Source of the DNA: Marsupella aquatica
Taxonomy: Eukaryota > Plantae > Marchantiophyta
Assembly: GCA_973895155.1 (NCBI GenBank)
Contig: OZ316899.1
Location: forward strand, 12,589,934 to 12,653,933
Reading direction: 5' to 3'
Length of the DNA: 64,000 bases
Shown here piece by piece: positions 5,766 to 46,100 of this stretch. The position numbers were made by a program, and so were the translations under genes. The notes under the pieces are model-generated. The model worked only from the letters and a program-made list of their open reading frames with translations, made no database searches and was not told the DNA's origin. Each line of letters begins with the position of its first letter. Position 1 is the first letter of the stretch.

Positions 5766-5865
5766 GGGAGCCGACCCTTTGTAGTGCACCAGTCCATCAA
5801 TCCACACGCCAGCTTCGACCCCAGCTCTCTCGTTCTCTCTTAGTTGCCACTGCTATCTCCTCTTA

Positions 5866-9407: not shown

Positions 9408-9425
9408 TGGCGCTAGATGGAGGGG
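9408..9425 (+). promoter_or_regulatory. Primer-binding site, tRNA-Asn type (C1)
   Basis: TGGCGCTAGATGGAGGGG, identical to the family A PBS, 13 nt downstream of the LTR end. Confidence 0.85.
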
Positions 9426-9640
9426 GCACTCTACGTGTAGTAGAGGGGAGACATGTGCGGGTGCACCTGGGCAGAATACACCAGGCCCGTGTGAGTTACT
9501 AACCATCGCGTGTATATGAGTAAATGTCCGTCACTCGTTCTCAAGCAGCCTACTTGAGGAGATTGACTAGCGAATGAGAGAGTGCAACCACAGCAAGCTC
9601 CGACTCTTTAGGATCGGAGGATTCGCAATCACCTCGGCAA

Positions 9641-16793: not shown

Positions 16794-16804
16794 TAACCCC
16801 CTCC
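16794..16804 (-). promoter_or_regulatory. Polypurine tract of element B
   Basis: GGAGGGGGTTA between the pol stop and the TGTG start of the 3' LTR. Confidence 0.85.
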
Positions 16805-22800: not shown

Positions 22801-23398
22801 TGAATTCCTCTTCTGATCGCTCAAAACCTTCGCCCACCAATTGCTCAGGTGAGTCAAAGAATTCCTCAGGTGTGATCTGTGCAAGAGAGCCGACTAAAGA
22901 GGGTTCCCGTTGGCTCGTATTAGAGAGACGAGGTGATACTGTTTGGTCTTCTCTTAATATTTCAGACTTATGGCCTTTAGCTTGGTCATGATCCGCAGGT
23001 TCCGAACCCCCTGAGTCAGCACTGGTCAAAGTTGTGTTGTGTCCCACGTCCTTCTTCACATTAGAGATGCCGTAAGCCGTAAATCCTGGTGACCCTAGGG
23101 ATATATCTCCGTCTAGGCTGGTGGATCTCCTTAGTGCTTTACCTTGCGGCTTCCTTGGTTTCCTGGGGACTATCTCTTTAGGTCCCGAGCGCAAGTTAAC
23201 AAACAATGGTCTACTAGCAGATGGCTTCTCTAGTGTGCCACTTCCTTTTTGTTGTTGTAAGAGTGACACCCGACTTGTGACATTCCCCGGTGCTGGAAAT
23301 TCTGGTGAGCGGAATTTGTTAAGCAATTCTGGAGAGTCTGATGGTTTGTCCGGTAACCCTTCCCTCTTCTTCCAAATGTGTTTATTCCTATCAGTCAT
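16805..23398 (-). pseudogene. Element B single-frame gag-pol (about 2197 codons) interrupted by four in-frame TGA codons
   Basis: ORFs 20936..23398, 20312..20926, 19829..20284, 19460..19765 and 16805..19393 are all in one frame. Contains Gag with 3 CCHC knuckles, PR (VPVDGGSSVNIM), RT (LDGYSGYNQ, FIDDF), RNase H and INT (WGIDFIGP, SDRG, WLGPYKV). Confidence 0.95.
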
Positions 23399-23962
23399 TC
23401 CTCATGGTGTTAGATACTTACTCCCTTTGGTGTTTTGCTTTCCAATGTAACCCCTAGTATGCGGCTTTGGTCAGCCCCCTCTTCCTAGGTGAACAGTCAT
23501 GACCCATCCTGTCTATGGTCACGTTGGTTGACTCAAGAGTCATGTGGATGAAGAGTCATAACGGTCAGTGGGGTTGTCCAAAAACCTCACAGCCTCCGGT
23601 TTCTGAGCCGATGGCTGATCCGGTTCCTGAGCCGGATTTCTTCCGTCACCTTCTCCCTTGCCTGGCTATCACCCTAGCTAATTCAGGGATGGAAATAATC
23701 GCATAATGTTCCCCTGTAATCTGTCCATTTATTGTTAAAATTACTAAATGTAAATCTGCTGCTTCCCACCAGGTAATGGATAGCGTGTGTACTCCCCGTC
23801 TACCTCGTTGGATTAGTGTCCTAATGCGATTTGAAGCATTCCTTAAGTTTTGCGCTCTAAAGGAACCCAAACTCCTTCGTGGTGGCATGTTTTAATAAGC
23901 TTCTGCAGAGCTCGGACAGGATTGAGTTGCTTGGTGAGTTTTGATCAGATTCCCTTTTTATT

Positions 23963-24862
23963 TTAATCATCCCAGGCTTCCTCGTCATCCTCATTATAAG
24001 GGAGTCTTAACTGAACCAGGTCTTGGTAGCTATTCAACAAATTTTCCAAACAATCAACTGAATCTGTCCATGGTGTTTCTACCAAATGTAATTTGTTCAG
24101 AACCTCCTCATACTTCTGTTCTTCCTCGGGTGTAACACGTGCAATTGGAATCTTGTGTTTCTTTAAGAAGAAGTCTAAATCATATTCCTCTTCCATCGGC
24201 TGCAACCTTACTCCTTCCATCCACTTCCTTTTTAGCACTAGGACATTAACCAACCTTGCTATCGGAGGTAGATCTGTCGTCCATTTGAATGAAGTTTGGC
24301 CATTGATAGGAAGCTCCCTTCTTATCACCTCCCAACTCTCATTGTAAGGATCTCTTAATTGATCTATTAAACGACATCGAGCCAAGGTCATCACCGACTT
24401 CTCCTTCCCTAGCAAATGATTTGAATTCTCATAATAATACTTCAATACATGTTCAAGTTCAATCCCCCAATTTGGATTTTCACTTAAATGTCCCAATGCT
24501 GATATCAATTCTCCTTGTGCATCTGCCTCTAAAGTTTCTTCCTCCAATTGGTTAGCAATTATGAATTCCGGAATGATAATTTGGTCAAATTCGTGGTCTG
24601 CTGTGGCCGTTACCAATTCTAGGAGCCCATCAACAGCTCGCTTGAAGACAAAGATCTTATCAAATAGAACATTAGTGGTCCAGGATTTGAGAGGGACTAA
24701 ATCTTTACCCCAATAATAGCTTTCTCCCAAATCATCCTCTTGTCTTCTCTTCAGTATTGTGGAGCGACCTTGTGCACAATTACACTTAATAGTGTAGATC
24801 TGATTTTCCCTAGACCTGATTTGGGCTCGTTCTCTCTTTCCTGGTCTGTGCCGCCTTACCAT
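23963..24862 (-). CDS. Extra ORF (299 aa, unknown function) between PBS and gag of element B
   Basis: Uninterrupted ATG-started ORF with globular-protein composition, on the element's sense strand within the 5' leader. Confidence 0.55.
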   Translation of the reverse strand: MVRRHRPGKRERAQIRSRENQIYTIKCNCAQGRSTILKRRQEDDLGESYYWGKDLVPLKSWTTNVLFDKIFVFKRAVDGLLELVTATADHEFDQIIIPEFIIANQLEEETLEADAQGELISALGHLSENPNWGIELEHVLKYYYENSNHLLGKEKSVMTLARCRLIDQLRDPYNESWEVIRRELPINGQTSFKWTTDLPPIARLVNVLVLKRKWMEGVRLQPMEEEYDLDFFLKKHKIPIARVTPEEEQKYEEVLNKLHLVETPWTDSVDCLENLLNSYQDLVQLRLPYNEDDEEAWDD

Positions 24863-25004
24863 TGGTGAAACACCAATCCTTTAGACTCAATTGTCTCTTA
24901 TTTCATGCTCCATTCTTCCTAGATTCCTTCTGGAGTCTATAATCCCTCATTCTCATTATTCTTCTAAGTCTGCCTCTTGGCAATGTTTCACCAATGACCG
25001 TCCC

Positions 25005-28000
25005 TGTGGTGCGTCCCATGGCTCCCTAAACCCAAGAAACCCCCCAGCTCAAGCCGATTCCCGCAGGTTTCGCGCTTGGCGAGGCCGTTTCCGCGGCTTA
25101 GCGGCATGGGACGCTGCTAACCTTCTACTACTACTATTAACATTTTACACACATATACTGGACAGATCCTTCATCGGGTCATGAGATACGTAGCCGGCCT
25201 AATCTAGGCCTTCCCTTGTCTTCCCCTCCGTCTTGTTAGGTATGTTTGGATTCCGCCGCCGGAATGATCCCCAATAGGCTTGGTTAAGCCGCTAAGACCT
25301 CTCTCAGCTCGACACATCCAACTCTCACTCCCCTGCTTACTTTCCTTCCTTCTGTTAGTTGATGTGGGCACTCTTCACACAAGTTAATGTGACACACAAA
25401 TAGCAAAATGACTCATTCTGACTGAGTCATACCATGCACTTGCCATACAAACAGTACATCTCATACACAAGCTCTGCAAACTAAGCCGTGAGGCCAACTC
25501 TATTCAGCTCTTAGGCATGAGGAAACATGAATATACACAAGGGTCACTGTATGACTAACCGAGAGCTTCCCTTACTACTTGATCCCAGCCCGGCTGGTGC
25601 AAACTAAAAACTTGCTAAAGAAGAGGCCCTGAGCTCCCCGTTGCCCAGGTACTTATCCTGGTAGTGGATCCGCCTAATTCTTTGCAGCATAAGCCTAATC
25701 TACCTAACAGTAATCTACTTGCCCGGATCTACCTATGTACAGCAAGGCAGGAGCACAAGTGTTGCTCCTACCAGTGGAACCGCAATCCCACTAAGCTAAC
25801 TGTGAGGGCCGCTCCTGGTCCTGATCCTAATCCTAAACTTGGAGATCAGCGCCCGCCCTGCCCACTCACGCCTCCTACCTCCACGTCCGCCCTTCCTAAA
25901 AGGAACGGTGCCCTTGCACCGTCACGACACCGGTGGTGGATCCTCAATGGACGCCCCCAACGCTTCCTCCTCAGCCACTGCCGTAGGTTCGTTTTCTGAC
26001 AGATTACTTGCCTTTGACTGAGTCAACTCTCCATCGGCCTGACTGGGTCCACCATCGGCATCGGCTCGGGAATCATTCTCGGCTACGGCCTCAGCCTCGG
26101 CTATGGTCTCCCCGGCCTGCTCAAGAGGCGGATCTGGGATACCGGCCTCATTACTGAGTAGTTCGGCTTGGGCCGCACCATCCCCACCTTTGATGATAGC
26201 GGGATCTATTGTCGTGTTCATGCCGGAGGTTGGTGCTGGGTCTACCTCCTTGGTCACCACGGCCTGTGGAGTCAGATTACTCCTTGACCCTGAAGGTTTC
26301 CGCTTCTTCTTCTTTTCTGGTTCGGCAGCTGGTCCCTTCCCCTTCCCACTTACTTCCGGCACTGGTGCAGGTGGCGCGGCTTGTTCTTCGGCCAGTACCA
26401 CTCCTGGTAACTTGGTTGCCCCAATTGGAGTTGGGCCTGATGAAGACAAGCACTTAAATACTGCGGCTTGTTTCTTCAGCCGCTCTGTTTGGTTGTCGGC
26501 CCGCCGCTGGAGGTTCTCCATCTTCCTCGTGATTTCCTCCAACTCCTCCTGGGTCTCATCCAGGTCCTTGCGCGCCTCCTTTAGTTCCTTCTGGGCTTCC
26601 TCCCGTTCCCTGTGGGCTTCCTCCAGTTCTTTCTTCAAGGTAGCCCTCTCCTCTCGGGTTGCTCTTAGCTCCTTGTCGAGCTCTGCAATGATGACAGACT
26701 CCATCTGGTTCATCTTGGCGTAAGTCTGATCGAGCATCTCGTCCTTCTCCCTTAGGTCGGCCTTGAAGCTGGCCGTCAGGGACGCAAGCTCCTGCTGCAG
26801 CGCCATAATCCCTTGATAGGATTTCCCTAACTCGGCCTCCTTCTGCTCAAGGGCTCCGCGAATTTTCTCGAGCTCCCCCTTCAACGCCCATTCCTTTCTT
26901 TGGGTCTCCGCCATGGCCCGGCTGTTGGCTGTTATGTGGGCCTCCTCTGCATTCCTCAGCTCTCGCTTCCACTTCTCCCTCTCTTTGATCGTATCGGCCA
27001 ACTCTCCTTGGGTCCGCGTCAGTAGATTCTCGATCATTCGATTATCAGATTGTGCGGTATCCAACTGGCCCTGCATGATATTTAGCTCATGCCGCTTAAT
27101 CCGCAGCTCATCTTGGGCTTTCTTGGCCACCCTCAGGTCCTTGATTTCGGCTTCCCTTTCCCTAAGCCGACGGATGACCTCGTCCTTCTTGCTTCTTTCC
27201 AAGGCCACCGCTTCTTCTAATTGGCGCTTCTCCAACATCTCCCTCTGGAAAAAGGGTCCCTGCTCCAACTCCTCCCCAAAGATGCTGAGCGCCAGTTCTC
27301 CACACATCTCCCCGTACTCCATGGCTCTGTCTTTAGCATAGGTGGAGGAAGTAGAAGTCATCGGCATCATCCACCGCGGCCTCTGCTCCCAAGCCGTCTT
27401 GCGGATCTCTTCAATCGTGGCTAGAGGTTTGCTTCCTTTTTCGGCTAGCCGTTTGATGTCCTCCGGCCAATCTCCTCCTGGCAAATCCTTTTCTCTAGCC
27501 AGGGCTGCCTCCTCTTCCTGCCTGATTTGCTCCTGAAATTCCTGCGCCGTCTGTTTTATGCCGTCAAAGCTCGGGGGAGCAACATCTGGTGGGGGAGACT
27601 CAGGGCTACTCTGCTGGTTGGGGTCCCCTCGTACTACCCTTGGAAGTGTGGGGATAAACCGGCCATAGGTCCTTACTCCTGGAACGTGATGGTCCGACCC
27701 ATAGCCGGAGTTATCATGGCTGCAGTCCTCCACTGCCTCCTCTACTTCTTGGACTTCCGGCTTCTCCCTCTCCTCTTCGTCCGTAGGAGCTTCAGGCAAT
27801 TCTGCCTCAGATTCAGAGCTTGAGACTCCTACGTACATTCGAACACCCGGCTTGGATTATGGCCTCTCCTTGTCTCCAGTAAAGGGGTTTTCCCTTGTAA
27901 GCCGGTGTAGGCCTACCTCTGGAGCAGTGTCCTGCATTGTTGCCGTTGTCGTTGCCGATGTCGATCTCTTTTCTTTCTCCAGTAGTTTCAGCAGATTTTG

Positions 28001-29681
28001 CATGCCTGGTTGCTGCATCGGCAAGTCCTCCGTCCTTGGCCTAAACACCTGCTCGATCGTAGGGCTAACAGGTGGTTGAGGCTTCTCTGCTACCGGCCTC
28101 GGTGCTGGAGCTTCCTCGGGTGCCCTTACCTGTAGGGGAAGTACTGGGGCAAAGGTCTGACCTCTGGCATACCGGCACAACAGCGGCATGTGATAGCCAA
28201 GCTGCGACACGCTCCCCATGCCGATTACCTGCTGCTCCTCCTTTAAGATCTTCTTCAATTGGTTGAGGAGGTACCCGTTGTAGTCCCGGCTTGGGTCTGG
28301 CCTCTCTGCCAGATAGACCTGTGCCTTGCCGATCTCTGCCCTCGGCAAGTTACAGTGCATGGTCACCCTCAAGAAGTCGATCATCTCTCCTATGTGCGGG
28401 TTGGTGCAGGTGTTCCGGAAGAAGCCATTCTTCGTTGATGGCCCGGGGAACGACCGGAACTCCTTGTCAGGCAAGGTCTTCCTGGTATCAACTTTGATCT
28501 TATTGCCTATCGGCAAGCCAAACACTTCGGCAATCACCTTGGGAGTAAGATAGAAATCCTTCCCATATATCCTCGTGCAATTGGTCTCGGGTTCCCATGA
28601 CCCCACGAATTCTAATAGGTCTGAATCCGGCACCTCCAGCTTCAGCCATGGTAATCTTACAAAGGCCTCTAAGCCGGATCCGGCCATGAAGCCTTGGTAC
28701 TTCTTGGTTTGCATGGTCGTAAAGCATGCATCCTCCTCCCGTGCAAAATGTAGTTGCACCTCCACCGGTAGGGTTGCCGCCCAGCCTTTCCAGGTGTCAT
28801 CCCTGGTTGGAATGGCCTTGATGGGATCGACCTCCTCCTCTTCGGCTTCTCCCTGCCTCCTGCTCTGCTGCTCGGTTGGCTTCTTTGGTGCCGCCGACCT
28901 CGTTCTTTTTGCCGGGGTGGCTTCATCGTTGATGGCTCCCTTCCTCTTCATCTCTGCTGCCGTGGAGGTTTCTCCTAGCACCGTTGCCTGGGTCCACCTT
29001 TCCGTGCTACCCTTTAATTCCCAGTGTATGTCGTTGCAGTTCTTGATGGCGTCTCGAATGCCGATGATGTTGTCTTTGCAAAATAGAAGATCGTCGAGCT
29101 GATTGGAAGTAGGAGTCCACAAGAACTCGTCCTTGATGAGTTCGCCTCCTAAGAAAGCCGTCTTCTGCAGCTCCCACAATTGAGCGAGCTCCTGCCGTTC
29201 TCGAGCTGCCCTTTCTGATTCCTCGTCCTCGTAAGTCTTGATGTACTCAGTTTCCCGTTCGAACAGGCATCCCCAGAAATGTGCCGCTTGATTGACGTTG
29301 CTCATACCCTCCTTAGGTCGATCGTCGGTATCTACTCTCTCCCCGAGTGCTTGCCTAAGCAGCTGACAGTAGTTGGCCTCCCGTAGTCGTCTGCCTAGTT
29401 CGTGCTCGCAAATGAGCCACCATTTCTTGCAAGCACTCCTTACCCCTCTCCTCTTCCGGTCCTTCCTCCCCTTGATCCTTCCTAGCCGCCGACGCTTAAC
29501 GTGCCCTAACCCTAATTGAGTTTTCACCCCCAACTTCCTTACCTCCAGCCTCGGCCCGGGTTCCATGGTCGCCCCTAATTGTTTATATTTTCCTTGTTTT
29601 GTCCCTATACTAAGGTGTTTCTAGGGTGCATTCCTGCTTTACCCACTTAACTGGCCGAGTGATTCCTGTCTAGGCATCACA
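25005..29681 (-). repeat. 3' LTR of A2 (4677 bp)
   Basis: Direct repeat of 39900-42668 apart from a 1910-bp deletion in the latter. Bounded by the TSD and the PPT. Confidence 0.95.
25922..29566 (-). CDS. LTR-encoded PMD-like + long coiled-coil protein, family A (about 1214 aa; one in-frame TAA at 27857)
   Basis: ORFs 27857..29566 and 25922..27838 are in the same frame, 18 nt apart. The A3 copy reads through (P-E-H-K-P-G-V-R-M-Y versus P-*-S-K-P-G-V-R-M-Y). Motif EFVGSWEPETNCTRIYGKDFYLTPKVIAEVFGLPIG. Heptad-rich E/K/L/R stretch. TATAAA at 29582-29587. Confidence 0.85.
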
Positions 29682-32036
29682 TAGCTCCCCACTTAATTGT
29701 GAAGCGTCCTCGCGAACAACTTCATCTTCGTCCATATAGTATTTCTTGAGGCGGTCATAATGGATGCGAACTGGATATACTTCTCCCGTAATGTTGGCCA
29801 ATTGTACGGATCCATTGGAGAACTTCATGGTTACTCTAAAGGGTCCTAACCAGCGAGTGTAAAGCTTTCCTGGAAACTTACTATACCTACTGTCATAAAG
29901 TAACACAAGATCACCGGTGTGAATACTAACTACTTTCAACTTTTTATCATACTGCTGCTTCATGATATTCTGTCTATATTCTACTCTCTCGGCTGAAATC
30001 ATTCTAGCCTCCTCTAAAGCTTCTAACCTATGTTCTCGCTCCTTTAGGCTCTCCTCCGCTGAGGCTCTTTCCTCAATTGTAACTTGAAATGTCGGTATCT
30101 CAAGTTGCATGGGTACCAGGGCTTCTTGTCCAAAGGTTAAGAAGAAGGGTGTATGACCGGTAGTGGATTTATAGGCTAGATTGTAAGCAAAAACAGCAGC
30201 AAACAATTTATCATCCCAATCAAGTTTGTTCTGAGCTACTGTCTTGTTCAATATCTTTCCTATAATTCCGTTTGCTCGTTCTGTCAACCCATTTGCCTTT
30301 GGATGGTAGGGAGTAGTAGGCCTATGTCTAACTAAATACTGCTCATTTAAACGACTAATTATATCATTCAGAAAATGGGTTCCTCTATCACTAACTAATT
30401 CTAGGGGTGCTCCATACCTGGTGAAGATCTGCTCATACATGAATCTAGCCGTAGTAATTGCATCATCCTTCGTGGTCGGTCTGGCCTCTACCCATTTAGT
30501 TGCATAATCCGTAGCCAGGATTATGTACTTGTTCCGTCGAGGGTGGGTCAGTGGTTTCAGAGGTCCGATGTAATCAATACCCCACTTCTCGAATGGTGCC
30601 AGAGGTAGAATAGGGTGCAGTGGATGTCTGGTGGACGCCCTTGGTCCTCCCGCTCGTTGACAAGGATCGCATTGTTTGATAAACTGATAGACATCCTTGT
30701 GCAAGGTGGGCCACCAGTAACCGGCATTTAATATCTTTTTAGACGTGGTTACTGGGGCAAAATGTCCTCCGGCCTCCTCTCCATGCATGGCCCGTAGGAC
30801 TCATTTTACCTCTCCCTTTTCCAAACACCTTTGAATCGTGCCGTTGATTCCATGCTTGTGCAGTATGCCTTTAATGCACTGATACTGTCTGACCTTCCGC
30901 ACAAAGACTGCGGCTTGTTCTCGGCTTAATCCTGGCTGTAATCTGGAAGTGCTGAGAAAATGTAAAATCTCAGGGTACCATGTATCAGCTATTTCCACAA
31001 CGAATAGCTCCTCGTCGGGGAATCGATCATCGATGCAATCCGTGGCAGGTTCACCTGTGATTCTTGAAAAAAAATCGGCATTGGCATGTAATTTTCCCGG
31101 CTTGATCCTCAGCTCATAGTCAAACTCCTGTAATAGCAAAATCCATCTTGCTACTCTGCCTGTAAGGTCCGGCTTATTGACTAGGTACTTCAAACTTTCA
31201 TGATCGGTATGAAAGATTACCTTGTACCCTAGTAAATAATGCCTAAACTTTTTACACAAATAAATGACTCCTAATGCTTCCCTCTCTGTGGTGGAGTAGT
31301 TCCGTTCGGCATCGGCAAGCTGACGGCTTGCGAAGTATATAGGATGGTCCCTTCCTTTCTCATTTAACTGACTTAGTACTGAGCCGATACAGAAGCCCGA
31401 GACATCTACAAAAACATGAAAATCTTTGTTCCAGTCCGGTGCTATCATGACTGGGGCCTCTACTAACATCTGCTTCAATTCTACCACTGCTGTGACTCGT
31501 TTGGGTGTGGGTTCGAAGTCTGCTCCTGCCTTGAGCATGTTGGTTAATGGTAAAGCTAGCTTGGCAAAATCCTTGATGAACCGGTGATAGTAACCAATGC
31601 ATCCCAAGAAGGATCTTACATCCTTTATGTTCTTAGGTTGCATGATATCTAGCCATACTGCTAGCTTACCTTTGTCAATCTCAATGCCCTTCCTTGATAC
31701 CTTGTGACCTAGTAGCACCCCCTCGGTTACTGCAAAGAAACATTTATCTGGGTGTAACTTGAGACCCACCTCTCTGCATCTCATGAAGGTTTTTCTGAGA
31801 TATTTAGCATGTTTCGATGCCTTCCCGAATACTGCAAAGTCATCAATGAAGATTTCCATGAACTTTCTCAAGTAATCATGAAAAATGTTCACCATCAATC
31901 GTTGGAACATAGCTGGTGCGTTGCAGAGTCCAAACGGCATACGATTGAAGACATAGATCCCCCATTCCGTGATGAAGGCCGTCTTGATTTGGTCTTCCTG
32001 CCGAATCCTGATTTGGTTATAACCAGAGTACCCATC
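29670..32036 (-). pseudogene. A2 pol: RT (C-terminal part), RNase H, integrase; the reading frame runs through the PPT into the 3' LTR
   Basis: YSGYNQ, MPFGLCNAP, FIDDF, NYSTTEREAL, WGIDYIGP, SDRG and WLGPFRV motifs. Stop at 29670 lies 10 nt inside the LTR. Confidence 0.93.
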
Positions 32037-35000
32037 TGTGACGCCGCCGGTACGGCGGTTAATGAGTGATTCAGTTTAACTGCGCTCGGCACGCGCGTTA
32101 GGAGTGTCTTAGGCCGCTATTATTAGCATAACGACAGTATTTAGGTAATCATTATGGGTAGGATATCATTAGGCAATAAGGGGGAATTCAGGTTCGGACT
32201 GGCGGCTGGTCGCTATTCGCACACCCGGGTTACGAGCGTGGAGGGGCCCCTCCCTCGGGTCCGTATAACAAACTTAAGGAAGCGGCCACTGACACGCGCT
32301 GACTCAGACCGGCGGAGTGGCCGACACACCACAAGCGTGAGCGGTTCAGCCTATGGGCATCGAGGAGACGTCGGGGGATCGACAAGCCCTCAAGGTATAA
32401 AAGGGGAGCCAACCCTTTGTAGTGCACCAGTCCATTAGTCCACGCGCCAGCTTCGACCCTAGCTCTCTCGTTCGCTCTAAGTCGCCACTATCTCCTCTGA
32501 ATGTCGCACACGATCCTCTCCAACTCGGCCATTCGATTCTGGACGCAGTTCCTATCTACCGGAAGGCACTTGGCCGACTCATTGAAACACGCCAACCCGC
32601 GCCGATACAAAATCGAACGCGAGTACGAGAGAGCCATCCTCCTAGCAGGACGACACCACTACATCCTTAACTTTGACTACCCGTCTCAGAGCGAGCTTTA
32701 TCGACCAGCAGAGGTATCCGCGTACTTCTTCAGCGGAGACAAATATATCGGGTTCTGGGAAGCATTGCTTCGGCTTCCGGACGAGGTCTTCAATATCCCG
32801 GGTATGATCGACTTGCAACGACATCACTTTGACCACATCCCTGCTCAGGTTCGGGCTATCATCAACAGCGAGTCCAGCACAACCCGTTCGACAAGGTCGT
32901 CTGCACTCGCTTCGGAGAACTTCTACCAGCACCTACAGAGCTTCATAGGAACTCGGCCAGCAACCAACATGACCAACTCAGTCGTACCCGTACCCGTACC
33001 CATACAACCTCAGGCTCAACTTCAGCTTCAGCCGCAGCCTAGCCAAACCCCACCACCGATCGCCCAGCCAGCACAAGTACGCTCCGTCATCAACGCTGTG
33101 GATCTTAGCGATGACGACGAGGCTACCCTACCCTTGACCAGGTGGCCCAGAGGAACAAGCGCTCAGGGGGCCGACACTATATCGTCCCCACCCCCTGCTC
33201 TGACCCCAGGAGCGGCCCCGGCAGACAACATGGTGACCGTGGCCGACCCGGGCCCGTTACTAACGGCAGCGGCACTACCCAGGCCCGATCGGGAGGATGG
33301 GGAGGTGTCACCTTCCCCGAGCCAGTCACGGGGGAAGAAGAGGAAGGAATCCGCCACTGCATCCGGGTTACCGTTGGCCACGGTAGTCGTGGCCAAGGTG
33401 ACGATGCACCGCATGGGGGAAAACATTCACAAAAACATCCTCCATCCCAAGCATGCGGTGTACCTGAAGACTCAGGGATTCGAGCACCTCGCCTCCCTCC
33501 CCTGGAACACTTGCAGGTACTACGGGGAGGACATGACGGAGTTCGTCAGGAATTATGACGACGCGCGTCAACATACTCGGCTGCAGGGAAGGAGTATGTC
33601 CCTCACAAAAGAACGGCTCAGGATGATCTTCGAGTTACCCGAAGGTGACCATCGAGTCGAATCACGGGCTCCCGGGGGCAAGGGAGCCAAGTACCAATCT
33701 TCAAGTTTTCCCTCAGAGGGAGCAGTGGACAACGGGTTCGTGATGAAGACCTGCCTCATCCCCGAGATAGCTGAGCGACTGGAGTTCCAGAGGTACGCCC
33801 TCCACATGATGGAACCCCGGGGGGAGATCTCCGCCGCCCAGGTTATCCAGGTCGAGAACTATCAACCTAGGAGGTGGGCGTCGTACTTCGCTAAGAAATT
33901 CCATGAAGAGATGGAGCGGCGAAGGAAGACGCTGTACATTGGCGGGAAGGCGTATTTTGCTAGCCACATCGAGATCATTCTTGAGTGGTACGCCCGGTTT
34001 GATCGACGAACCCTTCCCCGTGTCAACGTTACAAAGCTGGTCCCAGCTAGGTGGGTTTTCCCGGCCTTGGAGAGACGGCCCCAACCCGAGCCCCGAAGTC
34101 CAGCGGACACGCCAGCTTCACCCACCGCACCTCCACAAGTAGCTGTAGTCGTAACCAAAGAGGTACCGGATGGGTCGGTTGTCGCAACCGTTGATGCGAC
34201 CCAACAAGCCGGGCTAAGTACAGAAGTCGGTACGACGGAGGTCTTACCCGAGCCAGGGTCTCCCAAAGACCCACCGATGGCTATTCCGGAGAACCGGACA
34301 TTGCTGCAGGAGGACACTCCAGCCCTTCCAACGTTACGTCCTCAGGGCTGGACGTCACTGCCCCGGCCCCCGCGCGTGTTGATGTCTGCCCGTGCCCAAC
34401 TCCGGACAGGCACAACCTGGACCACCCGGAACTCTTCGTACCGGGTACATTTCTGAATGGGCTTCTGGGAGATTTCTCTCATCAAATTGCCCGGGATACC
34501 GGGGAGTTCATGGCCCGAAAGGTAGCTTGTTTCTTCAATCAGGAGTTGGTTGCCGCAGTAAAGGCAGGTCGGGCCCAGTCAGAGGCCCTTCAGAGAATAG
34601 AGCGGTACCGAGTGGAGTCCGTGTACCTAAAGAACGAAGTTGCGGCTCAAGAGGCTGAGCTTCTGCAACTACGACCCAAGGTTGCAGCCGCCAATGAGTT
34701 GTTAGCAAAGGCGCACGCTCTTACCGCCCTAGCCGAACAGGCCAAAGCTGGGAACGAGGCCGAGATTACACGACTCCGGAACCAGATTGACAGTTTGAAG
34801 AATCAAACTGTCACCTGGCAGAAAGACCTGGAGGAGGCCGAGGAACGGGCCCAACGGGACACGGCGGAGATAGCCACGCTGCAGACCGAGGTGGTGCGGC
34901 TCCAAACCGAGGCCGAGAAGCAGGACCAGCTGGCGGGTAAACTGACAAGTGACGCCCAGCAGCTGGAGGAGGCTTGTCAGGAGGCAGCAGAGGAGACGGA

Positions 35001-36026
35001 CGCGGCGAGGCGAGAGAACGAATCTCTGCTGGACCAGGTCCAGCTCCTCAAGGCGGACAATGACAGGCTTCGAAGGCAGCGGGATGGCCGCTCCCATTCG
35101 GGCGGCTCTGGCAAGCGTGCCAGGCATTAGCAGCGGAGTAGGAATAGATTAGGATTAGGACTGGCTTAGTCAGGCTCTTGGGACAGGCACCTGCCTTAGG
35201 TACAGCAGCGCTGCCGTGCTGTCCAGCCTGCGTAGATTAGGATCTTCTAATAAGACACAGCCGTTTTCCGGCCTGACTGTCAGCTTAGTTAGGACCTTAG
35301 TCAGCGAATCTTCGGCGAGAGGACACCCCGTCCCTCGCCCCTTAGTATTTAGTGCACCCCTCGGTAGAGGCAGGGGGGTTTTTAGTTGCAGAGTTGGGCG
35401 TCCGCGGTATGTGCGTGGAGTCCCGACCTCTGGGAATGAAAGAGTACCAAGGGGAGGGGGTAGGACTAAGCTCGCCGGGCGAGTGCGGAGCCGGGCTCCG
35501 TTGTAGTGTGCACCCTCGGCCTTGGACCTGTTCATTCCGGGGCTGTCAGGTCAACTAAGTGTACACATATGTTCCCTTTGTAGTAAAATCCTTTCCCATC
35601 ATTTTCCTTCGTGTAAATCGAGATTGTATGCATGTGCGCGTGTATGTGTGTGGGTTTCTCGTATATGGGTGGCAGCGCCAGGCCGAACGCACTACCCGAG
35701 ACGTGCACAGGGTGCAGCCTGCGGGTAAGTGGTTGCGAGCACGGGTTGAGGACCTGTATCATCGAATCCGGATCGAAGGCGGACAGCACGAAGGCTTAGA
35801 AGCCCTTAAGCCGGGGTTGATCCTACTATCGACTAAGGTACATTCCGGCGGCGGAACACAAACCATACCTAGGAGGTGTCCGTATTTAGCAGTATGCGCA
35901 CTTAGCGCTAGTTTACGAGAATAAGGTGCATTACGTGCTTCCCTTCCTGCCCGAACCCTCAGATTTACGAGGGATGTGCCCGTCTAAGCTGAAGTCTGAG
36001 TTAAGGCCGCAGCCGATGACGTGACA
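32037..36026 (+). mobile_element. Solo LTR of family C (C2, 3990 bp) inserted into A2 reverse transcriptase
   Basis: TGTGACG...CGTGACA flanked by TSD CCATC (32032-32036, 36027-36031). Splits RT at SFMDG|YSGYNQ. No PBS or PPT adjacent. Confidence 0.96.
32501..35130 (+). CDS. LTR-encoded PMD-like + coiled-coil protein, family C (single 1-bp frameshift near 34325)
   Basis: ORFs 32501..34456 and 34510..35130. Comparison with C1 (7690-7710) shows a 1-nt deletion. Motif QGFEHLASLPW...DMTEFVRNYD..RQHTRLQGRSMSLT.E.L.MIFELPEG. Confidence 0.85.
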
Positions 36027-39000
36027 CCATCCATGAATGAATATAGTTCATGACTGGCTACCATGTCTAGTACCATATCAGTAAAGGGTAAGGGAAAATG
36101 GTCTTTTAACGTTGCTTCATTCAGCTTCCTGTAATCCTGACAAACCCGGATCTTGGGTTTACCATCGGGTCCAGCTTTCTTGGGAACTATCACAATTGGA
36201 GACACCCAGTCTGAATGTAGGACTGGAGTGATGAATCCAGCTTCCACTAGTTTGTCGATTTCCATTTTGACCAGCAGGGAATACTTCGGGTTCATCCTTC
36301 GAATTGGTTGTCGAAATGATTTGGCTCCTAACATGAGATCAATTCGATGTTCCCCTAATGTTGGATCTACTCCCTTTAGATCTTGGTGACTCCATGCAAA
36401 CACATCCTGAAATTCAATCAATAAGTCACTGATCTCTCTCTCGAGCTCAGGTGCTAGGTTTCTCCCTAAGTTTAGTTCCCTTCCCTCTCCTAAGTTGAGC
36501 TTCCGATATTGCCGTGCTTGGATCATATTAATCTGCTTCTTCAAATTCGGGTCCAGCTCGGCGTCCAATCTCTCCAGTCTCATACCTCCATAAACTGGAA
36601 TCTCGGCTGTACTAGCCGAGTCGGTCTCTTCCTTGGTGTCCATAGATTGTCCCCTTGCCGGTTTATCCGGTTTTGAATTGGTGGTCGGCTTCCCTTCCTG
36701 CCTCGGCTCTGGATTCTGTCTGTGCATCTCATCCACCTCTTCCTCCTGAGGGTCAGTCCGCTGTGCTCTCCCGGCTTCTAATAGGGCCTCAATTTGTTCT
36801 GCCCTCGTAATCGGCTTGTATGCCGATCCCTTGGTATTTAATTCCTTGCCGATGATCGATGGCGTTGTGAACCCTGCCGGCTCTACCACAACGCCTGCAG
36901 AAAATCCACTGTCCCTGCTACTGCTCCCCACTTAGCCGTTTTATCCAATTGGTCTACATCCTTTACTTCCTCTGGAATTGCAGCTAAAAAGGTGGATTCT
37001 ATTGTAAAGCAGTCCTTGACCTCTTCGTCTTCTTCTTCCAAGTCACCTTCCATTGGTTCTTGCCATAATCCGCTGGGGGGTACCTCCGGTCCAAAGACAC
37101 TTTCTTCGGTTAGGTCAGTGAGGCATTCTAGCCAACGGACTTCATCGGCTGACTCCAGTCCACTATCGTACCCGTCTACCTCCCTGATGCTTTTCCTACG
37201 GTCATCCTTAGTGTCCCAGGATACCGTGATAGAGGGGGTCCCGAAAGTGAACTACTTTTTACCCCAATCTTCTATTACCTCGGCTAGGTATAGCCACGGC
37301 CTACCAATCAATAGCCGGAATGACGTAGGATTTACCGGCTTCATTACTACATAGTTAATGCTAAAAAAAACACCTCCTATCTCTGTCTTGATGCCGGTTA
37401 ACACTCCCGTGGGAATGACCTGATACCCATTGGCCATGTTTAGCACTCTTCCAGTCATCTCTAGTGTTAGACCCCACCCTTTTGCTATTGAATCAATCAT
37501 AATACATACCCCTGATCCTCCATCGATGGGTACCCGTAGTAATAATTCTCCTTGAATCATTAATGGTAATGCTGGGGCTCCTTGATCTTCTTCTATCATT
37601 AGTACGTCGGATCTGGTCGCTACCTTGGATAATCTCGGCTTGTCGAGAATAGCCTTCCTTAATTGCTTCCGGAAGTACGGGCTATTTTTCAATAGTTGAC
37701 CAACTGTTGCCGAGACTCTAGACTCTAGTACATCTTTAGCCAGGTCATAGGGAACAATCGGCTTCTCCTCTGGTGGTGTCTCCATCTTGGATTCGGCCTA
37801 TTTTGCCACGCTAGTCTCCACAGCTGTTGGATCCTCCAAAGCAAACAATGCTTTTGCTCGTTTCACATCCTTGGCAATGGCTTCGGTATTCTCCAGGGTT
37901 TCTAATTCTCTCAGTTGTTCCTTAACACTAGCCGTAACAGAGGGGTAGAACAACTTAGGATGATCTCGATTGAAGTCGCTATCTTGTGAAGGATTGGGTT
38001 CACTGGTGGGCTCATGGCTTACCTGTATTGCCGGAGCCCTCCCTTCTCCTTCCGTTGATGTTGACGAAGAGTCGATCTTTTCCTCCGTAACCTTCCCTTT
38101 ATTTTTGGCCAGCCCATCTCACCTTTCCTTCCTTCTGGTAGATCGAGTAGAGACCCGGTAGCAATCATGATCTAAATCCTCTTCTGAGAAGGTTGATAGG
38201 GCTTCGGCCTCATCATCAAATGGTACAAACTCTGCCTCGGCATCCTCTTGCCATCCTAGTTTGATGTGGTTGATTTGAACTCCTCCGGGGGTAGTACCTG
38301 GCGGTAAGACCTTTACTGGCAAAAGTTTATGATTTGCGGCCAGGCCTGCCACCCAAGTAGGACATTGCCCTAGCATATGACCTTCCTGTCGGCATCCCAG
38401 ACATAGCTGAGCTGGTTGTCCATCACCCTGTTTGCATGCATTCGGGCATTCTCTAGCAAAATGGCCAGGTTGACCACAATTATAGCATGCCGCAAATCTT
38501 TGCACATTCGGCCTAGGAGATACTGACGGGTTCTGAATAATCCGAGGATACATCTCTCCTGGATTGTTCCTTAATCCTGACCACATGGATGCAGGTCTGT
38601 TGGATAGGTCTCGTGCTCCAGTCTCACTGATGCCGAAAACACTATCAGCGGCATCTCCTAAAAAGTACTCTACTTCTCCCTAACATGGTCTGATCTCGGC
38701 CACATGCCGAACATGATTAGTATTAAGTTTAGGACACGCATCTTTATGGTGTCTGGTTTTATAACATAAGGCACACCATACAGAGCTATCCTCCTGTACT
38801 ACCTTCTTCTTCGGCTTTACCTCTGCAATTATAGCCTTAAGTTGCTCGATAAGGGCCACGATGTTATCTGTGGCTTAGCCTCCAGCTTGACTTTCGTCTT
38901 CCCTCTCCTTCTGCCCTTCCTTTTCCTAGTTTTTTCTTCTTCAGAACTAGAAGATGACTCACTCTTGCTACTTCCACTATCCGAGCTTGAGTTATCACTT

Positions 39001-39830
39001 CTTGACTTCTTAGAATGTTTCTTCTTCTTATCTTTTTTTTTATGGGGAGATCCCTCCTCTGATGAGGAACTCTCAGACTTAAGCTGTTTCTTCCGGCTTG
39101 TGATATCTGCATTAATGTATAATTGAATATCCTTAATTGCATCGGCTAAAGTCTCCGGGTTCTCCTTCCTAATTGCAAAACTCATCTTCTGTGGCAAAGC
39201 ATTCACCAACCATTGAAGTTGCATACCTTCAGATGCATTGGTCTTTGTACGTCTTACCAGTTTCTGAAAGCGTTGCAAGAACTTCCTGAAGGATTTGTTC
39301 TCCTTGAACCGAAGTCGTCCCAACTTCAGCACTGCTAGTTCTGAAGTTCCAATGGGTCAAAACTCCTTAACAAAGAGTGTTTTGAAGATATCCCAGATGG
39401 CTTGATCTTCCACATCTAATGCTCTGTACCAAGGCCTAGCCTCACCCTTGAACAGGCCGGGAAGAATCTGCATCTTGATGGCCGATTCTCCATTTGCTGC
39501 AGCGGTTCCCTTGAAATCATCCAACCATTCGTCCGGATCCTCATCTCCTCTCCCATGAAATGCCTTGTAATGTATGCGCGACCGTTGGCTCAGTCTGGTC
39601 CCTGGCCTCTCGTCTGGCCGTGCCTCTGGTTCCCCCATGTCGGTTGGAGACTCACTTCTCCTTACCGACTCTTCTTCTGGTATGTCTTCTTCGACGCCAC
39701 TTCCAGCTTCGGAGCTACCAGCTCTTTCTGCCCCTCTCAGTCGCTGTGTATCATGCCACTCGGCGAGCTGCTGCAGTCGAGCTCTCTCCCGTTGAATCAC
39801 TCTTTCTTCCCTCGGTGTAAGGTCAGTCAT
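36027..39830 (-). pseudogene. A2 gag-protease-RT (N-terminal part), disrupted
   Basis: Gag core, 3 CCHC knuckles, VPIDGGSGVCIM protease, LLIGRPWL, and WVSPIVIVPKK..IRVCQDYRKLN RT start. Multiple stops and frameshifts. Confidence 0.93.
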
Positions 39831-39877
39831 TACCTACGCTTCCTTTTTAACTTCATATCTCACGGCTTAAGAAATGC

Positions 39878-39895
39878 CCCCTCCATCTAGCGCCA
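39878..39895 (-). promoter_or_regulatory. Primer-binding site, tRNA-Asn type (A2)
   Basis: TGGCGCTAGATGGAGGGG on the - strand, 4 nt from the LTR end. Confidence 0.85.
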
Positions 39896-39899
39896 AAAA

Positions 39900-42668
39900 T
39901 GTGGTGCGTCCCATGGCTCCCTAAACCCAAGAAACCCCCCAGCTCAAGCCGATTCCCGCAGGTTTCGCGCTTGGCGAGGCCGTTTCCGCGGCTTAGCGGC
40001 ATGGGACGCTGCTAACCTTCTACTACTACTATTAACATTTTACACACATATACTGGACAGATCCTTCATCGGGTCATGAGATACGTAGCCGGCCTAATCT
40101 AGGCCTTCCCTTGTCTTCCCCTCCGTCTTGTTAGGTATGTTTGGTTCCGCCGCCGGAATGATCCCCAATAGGCTTGGTTAAGCCGCTAAGACCTCTCTCA
40201 GCTCGACACATCCAACTCTCACTCCCCTGCTTACTTTCCTTCCTTCTGTTGTTGATGTGGGCACTCTTCACACAAGTTAATGCGACACACAAATAGCAAA
40301 ATGACTCCTTCTGACTGAGTCATACCATGCACTTGCCATACAAACAGTACATCTCATACACAAGCTCTGCAAACTAAGCCGTGAGGCCAACTCTATTCAG
40401 CTCTTAGGCATGAGGAAACATGAATATACACAAGGGTCACTGTATGACTAACCGAGAGCTTCCCTTACTACTTGATCCCAGCCCGGCTGGTGCAAACTAA
40501 AAACTTGCTAAAGAAGAGGCCCTGAGCTCCCCGCTGCCCAGGTACTTATCCTGGTAGTGGATCCGCCTAATTCTTTGCAGCGTAAGCCTAATCTACCTAA
40601 CAGTAATCTACTTGCCCGGATCTACCTATGTACAGCAAGGCAGGAGCACAAGTGTTGCTCCTACCAGTGGAACCGCAATCCCACTAAGCTAAGTGTGAGG
40701 GCCGCTCCTGGTCCTGATCCTAATCCTAAACTTGGAGATCAGCGCCCGCCCTGCCCACTCACGCCTCCTACCTCCACGTCCGCCCTTCCTAAAAGGAACG
40801 GCGCCCTTGCACCGTCACGACACCGGTGGTGGATCCTCAATGGACACCCCCAACGCTTCCTCCTCAGCCACTGCCGTAGGTTCGTTTTCTGATAGAGTAC
40901 CTGCCCTTGACTGAGTCAACTCTCCATCGGCCTGACTGGGTCCACCATCGGCATCGGCTCGGGAATCATTCTCGGCTACGGCCTCAGCCTCGGCTATGGT
41001 CTTAGGGTTTAGGGTTGGCAAGTCTTCCTTCCTTGGCCTAAACACCTGCTCGATCGTAGGGCTAACAGGTGGTTGAGGCTTCTCTGCTACCGGCCTCGGT
41101 GCTGGAGCTTCCTCGGGTGCCCTTACCTGCAGGGGAAGTACTGGGGCAAAGGTCTGTCCTCTGGCATACCGGCACAACAGCGGCATGTGATAGCCAAGCC
41201 GCGACACGCTCCCCATGCCGATTACCTGCTGCTCCTCCTTTAAGATCTTCTTCAATTGGTTGAGGAGGTAGTCCCGGCTTGGGTCTGGCCTCTCTGCCAG
41301 ATAGACCTGTGCCTTGCCGATCTCTGCCCTCGGCAAGTTACAGTGCATGGTCACCCTCAAGAAGTCGATAATCTCTCCTATGTGCGGGTTGGTGCAGGTG
41401 TTCCGGAAGAAGCCATTCTTTGTTGATGGCCCGGGGAACGACCGTAACTCCTTGTCAGGCAAGGTCTTCCTGGTATCAACTTTGGTCTTATTGCCTATCG
41501 GCAAGCCAAACACTTCGGCAATCACCTTGGGAGTAAGATAGAAATCCTTCCCATATATCCTCGTGCAATTGGTCTCGGGTTCCCATGACCCCACGAATTC
41601 TAATAGGTCTGAATCCGATACCTCCGGCTTCAGCCATGGTAATCTTACAAAGGCCTCTAAGCCGGATCCGGCCATGAAGCCTTGGTACTTCTTGGTCTGC
41701 ACGGCCGTAAAGCATGCATCCTCCTCTCGTGCAAAATGTAGTTGCACCTCCACCGGTAGGGTTGCCGCCCAGCCTTTCCAGGTGTCATCCCTGGTTGGAA
41801 TGGCCTTGATGGGATCGACCTCCTCCTCTTCGGCTTCTCCCTGCCTCCTGCTCTGTTGCTCGGCTGGCTTCTTTGGTGCCGCCGACCTCGTTCTTTTTTC
41901 CGGGGTGGCTTCATCATTGACGGCTCCCTTCCTCTTCATCTCTGCTGCCGTGGAGGTTTCTCCTAGCACCGTTACCTGGGTCCACCTTTCCGTGCTACCC
42001 TTTAATTCCCAGTGTATGTCGTTGCAGTTCTTGATGGCGTCTTGAATGCCGATGATGTTGTCTTTGCAAAACAGAAGATCGTCGAGCTGATTGGAAGTAG
42101 GAGTCCACAAGAACTCGTCCTTGATGAGTTCGCCTCCTAAGAAAGCCGTCTTCTGCAGCTCCCACAATCGAGCGAGCTCCTGCCGTTCTCAAGTGCCCTT
42201 TCTGATTCCTCGTCCTCGTAAGTCTTGATGTACTCAGTTGCCTGTTCGAATAGGCATCCCCAGAAATGTGCCGCTTGATTGACGTTGCTCATACCCTCCT
42301 TAGGTCGATCATCGGTATCTACTCTCTCCCCGAGTGCTTGCCTAAGCAGCTGACAGTAGTTGGCCTCCCGTAGTCGTCTGCCTAGTTCGTGCTCGCAAAT
42401 GAGCCACCATTTCCTGCAAGCGCTCCTTACCCCTCTCCTCTTCCGGTCCTTCCTCCCCTTGATCCTTCCTAGCCGCCGACGCTTAACGCGCCCTAACCCT
42501 AATCGAGTTTTCACCCCCAGCTTCCTTACCTCCGGCCTCGGCCCGGGTTCCATGGTCGCCCCTAATTGTTTATATTTTCCTTGTTTTGTCCCTATACTAA
42601 GGTGTTTCTAGGGTGCATTCCTGCTTTACCCACTTAACTGGCCGAGTGATTCCTGTCTAGGCATCACA
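39900..42668 (-). repeat. 5' LTR of A2 (2769 bp), internal deletion bridged by telomeric filler
   Basis: Lacks the equivalent of 26110-28019, replaced by TAGGGTTTAGGGTT at 41003-41016. Fused ORF 40815..42167. Confidence 0.95.
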
Positions 42669-43100
42669 GTCCCCTCTCCCAAATTTTCTTCAATGATTGG
42701 TAATATCAATCCCGGAGCATTGTCCAATGAAAATGTTATAGTCTGGAATGAGAAGTCTTGCCCAAAGGTAGGCATCTCCATGATCAGCAATTTTGCAATC
42801 TTCTCAATCTTCAAAATGTTGATTCACAACTCCTAGGATCCTTCTCCCATAAATGTTTCATAAATCTTATGGGTAAGCTTGAAAAGTGAAGAGTTGTGGA
42901 TCCCATTTCCTCCAATCAGAATAAATTCTCTCTCCTTGGCACCCTTTGCCTTTCTTCCTAGTATCAAAGAAGTCTTAAGTTAGGGAGATAACTTCCCCAC
43001 AAGAACATCCTTGGGGGTGGCTTCTCTCCCCCGTCAAATCCATTCTCCTTTGTCTGGCATTAACGTCCTTTTCTTCTCCAATCTCTTGGTCTCAGGTTGC

Positions 43101-43118
43101 TCCCCGGCAGCGGCGCCA
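43101..43118 (-). promoter_or_regulatory. Primer-binding site, tRNA-Asp type (element B)
   Basis: TGGCGCCGCTGCCGGGGA, 3 nt from the LTR end. One mismatch to the Athila-type tRNA-Asp PBS TGGCGCCGTTGCCGGGGA. Confidence 0.88.
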
Positions 43119-43121
43119 AAA

Positions 43122-46100
43122 TGTAGAGTAGGGTTTAAGGAAATATGAATTACTTTCCTCTTAAACAACCAGAATTCATTCTCGTTAAGAGCTTGTGAGA
43201 CCTAAAAGATTGTATTAATATACTTTGAGATAGTTAAGCTAACCTATCTCAGATTTTAAGCCTTTACCAACATGCTTAGGTCAGGTGGAAGGAGTTTTTA
43301 ATACATCCTCAGGTATTGTGATGTTTGTATCATCAACAGTGCAATAATCAATTCTAAAAATATAATAAAACAACCAAAAGCCGGAGGCGTAAAGAGAGGA
43401 TTAGGCGAGCCTTAAATGTCTCATCTCCTCTCGCCACTTAGCAATCTGTGACTAAGTTAGGCATGATTAAGAGTCAACAGAGAGTCTGACAAAATTAGGC
43501 TGATGCCTAAAGCTCATCTTTAAAGCCAACCATCTAAGAATTTGTAAAAGATGCATATAAGATAGCCCGTATTAACTTTCTGACCTATGTCAAGACAAAG
43601 GTGGTACTGATTACTTCGAACTAACTTATTCTTCTATTCAATCCTTCGGATTGCTCTTTTAGGACTACACAATTTGTGAGTTCTCGTATGGTGCTTCTTC
43701 CACTAATACTTAATAAGCCATAAGTATTCCATAGTCAACATGAATCTTTAGACCTTTACATGGACTCAGGCATGCATTTCCAGTCAGCCTAAAGGTTAAC
43801 TATGACATTGCTAGTCACTTTCCATAGATTTTCTAGCAAGAATGGTCACACACTAATGTCCAAACACAAAGCATAGATCACCAAAATTATGAATCTATTA
43901 CTTCTCTTCAAAGAAGGAAACTTTCAAAAGTGAAATGCAAGTCTGAGTAAAATGGTGGAAACTTTCCCTCTTATACTTAGGGACAAGTCTCCTCTAAACA
44001 AAAGTTGAAGAGGTATGCCCCTTCAATTCCTAATCTAAGTGTAAAAGTAAAAAGTAATGCTAAAGTCTGAAACTAGACTATGAGATAAAGTGCTCAGCAA
44101 AAATTCAAAGTCTAATTCTTCCTATACTAAGTTTTATAGGGCTTCAAACACGAAACAGGATCAAAAACCGGGTGGGAAACCGGATGGGAAGCCGGTTCAA
44201 CTTCCGGATGGAATAACTTTTTACTCTTCAAGAGTTGAAGTGTCAGGCTTCACCGACGTGGAGTCTACTGCTGGATCAATGGAGTTGAGAGGGTTTGGCA
44301 TGAAAGTGATACCTCCAAAGGTAATAGTAAATGGTGAGGTCGGAATGGGTGGAAAATTGGGTGTAACTGTGGTAGAAGTAATATCAGGATCAGGAGAGTC
44401 AGCCCATCCTTCTGCTGGTGTCACCTGTGGGGATGGAACAGTGACTTTCTCTGCAAATTGAGTCTGCTCCTCATCAGAAAGGTCATAGAATTTTTTCAGT
44501 TCAGCAAGGATAAGCTTGAGGGCAGAGAGGCATTCTTCCACCTTGTCACCATAGTCATGTGCAATTTGGATGACTAAGGGCATGAGAATGGGGATTGGGA
44601 ACATCTGAAGTACTGCCTGAATAGTTGGGTCTGTACCAGGTCCTCTCCCTTGGTTTCTACTAAGGGTTCCAGGTGATCCATAGCTCTGGAAATGTTATCG
44701 AAGAGTAGTTGCTCCGCTGTGGTCTTCTCCTTTGCCTTGTGCAGCAACTGTTCAAGATGATAGTTCTTCTTCTTCTTCTCTTCCTCTAATGATTTCTCTA
44801 GCTGCTCAATCTTGAACTTGTTCTCATCTCCTTTCATCAGGTCCTCCACTTTCTTCACAAGGTCAGCAGGAGCCACACCAGTCACCTGGGAGAGCCTTGA
44901 GAGCACTGGTTCCATGATTCCCATCTTGGTCTTGATGGTCGAAAGATCCTTGAATAAACAAGAAAAATGGTGTAAGGTAGAGTGTGAAAGACCGGCTGAA
45001 GAGGTAGTAGCGCCACTCATCGGGTAGGAAACCGGGTCAAAAACCGGTTCAGAAGCCGGTTCAGTTTTGTCGAGCTTCCTCTTCTTGGTTGGCCCTACAA
45101 AGTTGATCTCTTCCGGCTCTGGGTCATCTTCAGACTCTGGTAAGCTCTGAATTTCTGGATCCAAGACTCCATATTTCACATAGCTGCTCTTGGTGCCAAA
45201 TGCACTCTTCTCATGTTTGAATAAGGTTTGGTCATGAGAGTATAGATGTACCAAGTAACAGGAGAGAGCAGTGGGGGCTCTGTTGGACAGGGCGGAGACC
45301 TGCTTCTCTAGAACACTTGAGAAGATAGTAGCCCATGATACCTCTCTGGTTTTGAAGAAGGAAGCAATGATAGTACTTCCTACTTTAAGAATCACCCTCC
45401 TTGGTTTCTCTGGATAGATGAGGGGGACTAGGAATGCCATCACGTTCCTGAGGTCCTTGTGAGTACACTGGTTGATGGTCCATCCTTCTTTGGCATCCAT
45501 CTTGCCACCAAAGTATTCCACTGTGAGATTCTCTCCTCTGGGGCAGAAGCCACTCCCTTTCACTGGTAGCTGAAAAGCTTCTCCAACGAATGCCTTGGTC
45601 CAAGCTTCTGGTCGAGCTCGTGCAGTCTTCTGAAATTCTGTGGGAGGAACTCCTGCCAGCACTTCCCTTACCATGTCTTCACTCAGAAATCCCCAAGTAA
45701 GATCCATCAAGGAGGCACAGCCCATTAGTGTAAGATCTTTTCGGAGCTGTTCCTTCTCAGCTGCATCAGTAGGAATGAGGGGTCTCAAGGGCTTCATGGT
45801 GATCTGAGCCTCCTTCCTCTTTGAACATCGTACTTCAGGCTTTACTGGAGTCCCACTCTGAGTCTTGGAAGAAGGACTGCTCTTGGCACTCTTCATACTG
45901 CCTGGTAGTTGGAGTAGCAAACAGATTTGAACCGGTGAAGGCAGAAGGTAGGAGCTAGAAGTGAATATAGCCTCTATAATTACTCCGTCGCGTATATCAG
46001 CCAACCTTCTCCATCTCAGCACACTTTCAGCGAAAACAAACATCCAGCAAGCGAGATATAGCAGAAACCGGTTTGCCACCGGTTCAGTTCCAGTTCAGAA

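Follow-up and report, generated by a model that had tools for sequence, protein, structure and literature searches.

An accessory gene inside the long terminal repeats of Ty3 retrotransposons in the liverwort Marsupella aquatica, with a predicted VANC21-like core fold

The accessory open reading frames (ORFs) of plant retrotransposons are put in the internal region of the element in the passages of the reviews cited here (PMC7264820, PMC6317226, PMC11963269, PMC11728184, PMC3485330). Going by the cited parts of the respective sources, the PMD domain is present in 57% of Ogre elements (PMC6317226); PMD domains resemble the DUF1985 domain of VANC proteins, and their PMD-A clade is retrotransposon-encoded (bioRxiv 10.1101/2024.09.27.615353; PMC13547354); VANC proteins, in turn, bind to short motifs within the transposon family that encodes them and strip silencing marks in trans (PMC10398659). 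Given this kinship of PMD with VANC and the occurrence of PMD in Ogre, such a fold is to be expected on a plant Ty3 element. Here, we describe a stretch of 64,000 nt from the liverwort Marsupella aquatica (GenBank assembly GCA_973895155.1, contig OZ316899.1, forward strand positions 12,589,934 to 12,653,933; hereafter, the window, from the first letter of which all coordinates are counted), in which a whole accessory gene lies within the long terminal repeats (LTRs) of Ty3 elements and also within a solo LTR, named C2. The novelty is the position of the gene inside the LTR, not the fold of its product.

C2 is what remains, as a solo LTR, of a non-chromoviral Ty3 retrotransposon of the plant. 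Its features, and those of its twin C1 (both of family C), are given below with the strand in brackets; TSD stands for target-site duplication, RT for reverse transcriptase and dN/dS for the ratio of non-synonymous to synonymous substitution rates.

32037..36026 (+): solo LTR C2, family C; 3990 bp, TG...CA ends, 5-bp TSD, without internal region
32032..32036 (+): left TSD copy, CCATC (right copy, 36027-36031); the interrupted RT gene belongs to host element H
32396..32500 (+): TATA box and CT-rich leader, both retained in C1; putative promoter
32501..32890 (+): conserved N-terminal domain (about 120 aa) of the LTR protein; aligned to homologs P0045 and P0005
33335..33346 (+): KKRK basic stretch directly ahead of the core domain; candidate nuclear signal
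33383..34045 (+): core domain of 221 aa with a predicted VANC21/DUF1985/PMD-like fold; dN/dS 0.22
34320..34326 (+): the one frameshift of C2 (1 nt, near 34321, judged against C1)
34330..35130 (+): coiled-coil-like C-terminal part; dN/dS 0.20
35131..36026 (+): LTR sequence 3′ of the ORF, non-coding; 83% identity with C1; contains a 31-bp word at 35841-35871
5399..9394 (+): C1, 5′ LTR of family C; 3996 bp, in the protease region of element A
9408..12020 (+): internal part of the C1 element (primer-binding site, gag, zinc knuckle, protease region), which ends near 12020

The 3990-bp, TSD-bounded solo LTR of the original prediction was borne out by three lines of evidence that agree: the termini (TGTGACG at 32037 and CGTGACA at 36026), the duplication of CCATC on either side, and the empty site, i.e., 32031 joined to 36027, which occurs in public DNA contigs from four out of four runs. 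The insertion interrupts the RT gene of H, a minus-strand Ty3 element. In the same four runs, 20, 7, 1 and 22 contigs with dissimilar flanks begin at 32037, and such numerous unlike flanks imply that this is the boundary of a family with many insertions. We searched for terminal repeats inside C2 and found none. That the C2 sequence is an LTR follows from C1, 88.7% identical to it, which precedes a primer-binding site (9408, within 14 bp of the LTR) and then gag. Because C1 has no TSD and is adjoined by the primer site and gag, it is a 5′ LTR rather than a solo LTR. Plant telomere-like repeats (approximately 12025-12045) occur where the element of C1 breaks off.

The gene anatomy claimed at the outset is likewise all present in C2: TATAAAA at 32396, a pyrimidine (CT-rich) patch at about 32460-32500, the ATG at 32501 and an ORF to 35130 with a single frameshift. 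The ORF, about 2.6 kb or two thirds of the LTR, is read in two open frames (32501-34456 and 34195-35130). A natural intact homolog of 906 aa (P0045) aligns with both pieces in order (E 1e-85 and 3e-14); the two frames are, therefore, one gene. Its protein consists of the N-terminal domain, a low-complexity linker with the KKRK stretch, the core domain, a second linker and the coiled coil; for the N-terminal domain, an Atlas search gave no usable match. The ORF in C1 carries stops at 6052, 6121 and 7152 and a frameshift near 6421, none of which coincides with the C2 frameshift, so that the lesions of the two copies are at different positions, as had been stated.

The same layout recurs in two complete minus-strand elements of the window, H and D.

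25005..42668 (-): host element H, complete; TSD GGGAC; primer-site word same as in family C
25005..29681 (-): H 3′ LTR, 4677 bp; homologous ORF with one in-frame stop (27857-27859)
39900..42668 (-): H 5′ LTR, 2769 bp; deletion of about 1.9 kb within the ORF; same start as the 3′ LTR
13542..46740 (-): complete element D; TSD ACCAA; primer site of another type; leader interrupted by H
13542..16793 (-): D 3′ LTR, 3252 bp; distant ORF homolog at 15950-14547
43122..46740 (-): D 5′ LTR, 3619 bp; holds the distant ORF homolog

The LTRs of H and D are paired (49 differences at 2769 sites in H; 47 at 3251 in D) and come with TSD and polypurine tract; the 3′ LTR of H begins with TG immediately after the purine tract, itself downstream of the integrase gene. 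Both elements have the order gag-protease-RT-RNase H-integrase and no chromodomain; family C is represented in the window by gag and protease only. The primer site of D we take to be of the Athila (tRNA-Asp) type. A search with the general Pfam models showed no additional RNase H, the mark of Tat in the sense of Neumann 2019, in H or D, and only some 100 aa lie between RNase H and integrase. The ORF of H is homologous to that of C2 (26% identity, E 2e-17), and so, more distantly, is that of D (profile E 6e-8 and 5e-9; profile-profile probability 95.6, E 1e-8). H and D thus prove that the whole gene lies inside paired LTRs, with family C as the third case, and we hold the gene-in-LTR layout to be very probable.

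Between insertions, the LTR ORF behaves as a real gene under purifying selection, judging from its substitution pattern. The dN/dS of C2 versus C1 is 0.35 (interval 0.26-0.47), whereas a neutral baseline simulated with the same transition bias gave 0.70 (0.52-0.96) and the shifted frames gave 1.14 and 0.87. By part, the core (0.22) and the C-terminal part (0.20) are well below the low-complexity linker (0.79). Two separate LTRs of the H family yielded 0.23 (0.17-0.30), to be compared with 0.18 for gag and 0.19 for the protease of that family. Pairs of LTRs from the same element gave 0.56 (0.30-1.19; H 0.45, D 0.96), which is compatible with neutrality, although with 42 differences this is a weak test. 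What these data show is selection in the replicating lineage, not in solo LTRs.

A library-wide search retrieved 44 homologs at E 0.001. Among the 10 that were looked up, four clusters are named proteins of the liverwort Calypogeia fissa, and the best homolog of the D ORF (one named among four matches) is also from C. fissa. P0013, P0051, P0052 and P0053 are C. fissa homologs whose accessions form two pairs on a single contig (CAM6101869/70 and 79/80), the pattern expected of the two LTRs of an element or of a pair of near copies. Word-index protein searches with the C2 protein found no matches (one search was limited to proteins of 1303-3720 aa), and metagenome scans turned up no locus with this layout. 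It had been suggested that solo LTRs of this kind are probably mis-annotated as host genes; the liverwort annotation does list the homologs as ordinary proteins, a result that concerns the proteins and does not extend to the solo status of their loci.

The core domain was modelled with confidence from a 42-sequence alignment (pLDDT 93.6, pTM 0.89; single-sequence folding reached a pLDDT of 31). The top Foldseek hit of this model is DNA-bound VANC21 (probability 0.97, TM-score 0.54, E 0.047), with the next row at a probability of 0.02. An independent structural search against 48,161 chains returned VANC21 at Z 8.3 (root-mean-square deviation 4.1, 206 residues aligned), the sole chain above Z 5, the next being at Z 2.2. 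The language-model neighbours are plant clusters including DUF1985 (0.90) and PMD (0.89; 14% of members). A fold of the VANC/PMD type is, on this modelling, quite probable. No Pfam family scored above its cut-off with the core domain, and the C-terminal part has sub-threshold coiled-coil matches only. Basic stretches occur in the proteins of all three families. None of these proteins has a transmembrane segment, as an envelope protein might (maximum 19-residue hydropathy of 0.65-1.43 over five pieces), and a viral structure library gave no match at E 0.001, which leaves a viral nucleoprotein or envelope reading unsupported. Transposase_32, considered for a likeness of motifs, matched one of the 42 members at E 0.059 and was not accepted.

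Certain short words are over-represented in H and D. In H, GCCGA occurs 62 times against 23 under an order-2 Markov model (47 against 26 in synonymous shuffles) and AAGCCG 31 times against 7 (25 against 8.5); in D, AACCGG is found 26 times against 4.5 (9 against 2.4). For none of the three was the count reached in any of 200 shuffles. AAGCCG and AACCGG are unenriched in the respective other two families, and these family-specific words may be a hint of the targets of the protein. They are dispersed in H and D. The enrichment of ACTAAG in the 3′ region of C2, found in one of 24 tests and missing in C1, was rejected. The CpG observed/expected ratio is 0.85-0.89 in family C (0.89 in C2) versus 0.43-0.65 in H and D.

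The best overall explanation, in which we have moderate confidence, is that of an LTR-embedded accessory gene for a predicted VANC21-like regulator that would keep its own family active; that the protein is a DNA-binding regulator of its own family has a chance slightly better than even. The gene would be transcribed from the TATA promoter at the start of the LTR, and its RNA would end within the 3′ part of the LTR. The protein might then enter the nucleus, oligomerise via the coiled coil, bind short family-specific words in the element and, in trans on all family copies, counter silencing or activate transcription. A full element carries the gene twice, and LTR-LTR recombination leaves one copy; since the gene lies wholly inside the LTR, its retention in solo LTRs follows mechanically. 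Survival of the gene in solos is most likely a by-product, selection acting on the replicating copies. The gene could have entered the LTR by a shift of the purine tract to a position upstream of a 3′ accessory gene, which would place it in U3 (cf. sag of mouse mammary tumour virus, MMTV), or by a shift of the primer site to a position downstream of a 5′ gene, which would place it in R/U5. One may speculate further, although we think it doubtful, that liverwort elements of the Ogre/Tat/Athila (OTA) group moved a VANC-type, sequence-specific anti-silencing gene into their LTRs, that LTR-LTR recombination, by which the host mainly removes such elements, scatters promoter-plus-gene cassettes that temporarily de-silence the family in trans, and that the LTR state perhaps links the 5′ position of accessory ORFs in Ogre to their 3′ position in Athila.

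Several points weigh against this explanation. The fold match is near the trust limit of the tools (Z 8.3, 9-11% identity, Foldseek E 0.047), and a Z of 8 is close to the range that unrelated models can reach, yet the match covers the whole domain and is isolated. The Pfam families for PMD and DUF1985 (PF10536 and PF09331) matched none of the 42 members at the cut-off (E 0.1), and the sequence profile, run against PDB sequences, recovered neither VANC21 nor anything else real. Likeness of fold shows no function, and host PMD proteins use the same fold. Neither an enriched word nor a tandem array of the sort that VANC targets have in non-coding DNA was found when family C was searched. The words in H and D were selected and tested on one and the same set of sequences, and CCG is part of both; mutation bias may therefore play a role. 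Finally, we infer the two-LTR structure of family C from C1 and from the sister families: within the window, no element of the family shows a second LTR and a polypurine tract, that of C1 ending in the protease near 12020, and the purine tract of the family was unreadable from loose contig ends (agreement of 0.40-0.47).

That family C has no tandem array and no word in excess leaves room for a protein with the same layout and fold that acts elsewhere, i.e., in RNA export or packaging, as a component of the particle or in tethering integration to chromatin. The functions of plant accessory ORFs are not established, and elements of this kind have inserted into each other across the window, as targeting would give; nesting, however, is common in repeat-dense regions anyway, the sole structural match is a DNA-bound anti-silencing protein, and H and D have their family-specific words. 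We consider such another role unlikely.

The original prediction went further in holding that solo LTRs keep the gene working as dispersed trans-acting donors, an advantage that would explain its position in the LTR. The cassette is physically complete in a solo LTR, VANC acts in trans on its own family, the layout is common to three families, C2 has one lesion only and a high CpG ratio, and the liverwort annotation calls the homologs as proteins. C2 is, however, frameshifted, and its single lesion matches its young age: C2 is younger than H, its host element, and if 0.3-0.9% of sites have changed since it inserted, the expectation is 0.3-1.4 stops, with a probability of 0.25-0.77 for zero. 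A single frameshift thus requires no selection. Moreover, selection after insertion was not shown by the same-element pairs, one solo LTR was examined, and solo LTRs cannot replicate, so that selection would presumably need kin elements. Neutral decay fits, and the C2 copy is probably dead; that this particular solo is functional is very improbable, and the persistence of its gene as a working trans-acting copy found no support. Dispersed donors as the reason for the LTR position are, in general, improbable too.

Lastly, that the 4-kb unit is a small non-autonomous element, a host gene captured between short repeats or a collapse of the assembly is hardly credible: the window shows no family C element with a second LTR or a purine tract, and homologs are annotated as host proteins, but C2 has no internal terminal repeats, C1 without a TSD continues directly into primer site and gag, H and D are true LTR pairs with the same layout, and many independent flanks meet at one boundary.

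Some further observations concern these elements and their surroundings. Although the non-coding LTR parts of families C and H cannot otherwise be aligned, they share, at 90-94% identity, a 31-bp word near the 3′ end of the LTR (35841-35871, 25237-25266, 40132-40160 and 2604-2633, with a similar one near 12670-12710), which may act in cis in packaging, dimerisation or 3′ processing. Elements of the group have inserted into one another five times (at 5399, 32037, 42668, 46740 and 48565), and both family C copies lie in pol genes of one host family (A versus H, 91% identical). Plant telomere-like repeats occur at 41003-41016, at the deletion junction of the H 5′ LTR. Some 360 bp near the end of the ORF in the D 5′ LTR (44240-44598) are missing from the D 3′ LTR, and a 305-codon open frame upstream of the D gag (23963-24880, minus strand), with no Pfam match, is a possible second accessory ORF. 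The window also holds a LINE-type (long interspersed nuclear element) RT with zf-RVT at 48993-52070 (+), an inverted repeat of 343 bp (53249-53590 / 53896-54238) and, at 55107-55672, a tandem pair of 264 bp.

The function of accessory ORFs in plant retrotransposons is an old open question, to which the three families contribute a confidently modelled domain with one structural match; the candidate family-specific words in two of them make DNA binding directly testable. The layout is an exception to the working rule of non-coding LTRs in plants, explains LTRs of 3-5 kb and doubles the gene per element, and it means that solo LTRs and LTRs can come to be listed among the lineage-specific proteins of liverwort gene catalogues. 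Our literature search, with most subscription papers outside its coverage, yielded no account of LTRs with a gene inside them, be it from liverworts or from plants at large.

The described systems, compared here on the cited parts of their sources, each share some of these traits. VANC21 of the Arabidopsis VANDAL21 (PDB 9lnj/9lnk; PMC10398659) is a transposon-borne accessory protein with a likeness to the predicted core fold over 206-208 of 221 residues, and is likewise predicted to self-associate via a coiled coil (PMC13547354). VANC genes, however, reside on Mutator-like DNA transposons of eudicots, with their motifs in tandem repeats, whereas the liverwort gene is on a retrotransposon, identity is 9-11%, family C has no array and the activity is putative. 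MMTV has its sag/naf ORF in U3 (PMC9412291), i.e., a protein gene within the LTR, with an LTR-internal promoter, but it is a mammalian retrovirus, and the product is a superantigen unrelated to the LTR ORF described here. Rice Retrosat2, RIRE3 and RIRE8 (PMC3485330) have LTRs of more than 3 kb, an extra ORF and many solo LTRs; compared by description only, their ORF0 is upstream of gag-pol and not in the LTR (PMC3485330). The liverwort Tat Z2 lineage (PMC13468544) lacks the additional RNase H, and the same appears true of H and D, whose state also fits Athila; this likeness is drawn without an RT tree, and the cited passages on Tat Z2 (PMC13468544) make no mention of LTR ORFs. The OTA elements are likewise non-chromoviral Ty3 elements with LTRs of up to about 5 kb and a conserved sense accessory ORF: PMD in Ogre, structurally akin to VANC, Transposase_28 in Retand and ORF-1 in Athila (PMC6317226, PMC7264820, PMC11963269). 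None of the PMD, Transposase_28 and Athila ORF-1 families was matched by the LTR protein at its Pfam cut-off. Furthermore, the OTA ORFs are described as internal, before gag or after pol, whereas in M. aquatica the whole gene lies in both LTRs and stays in the solo LTRs.

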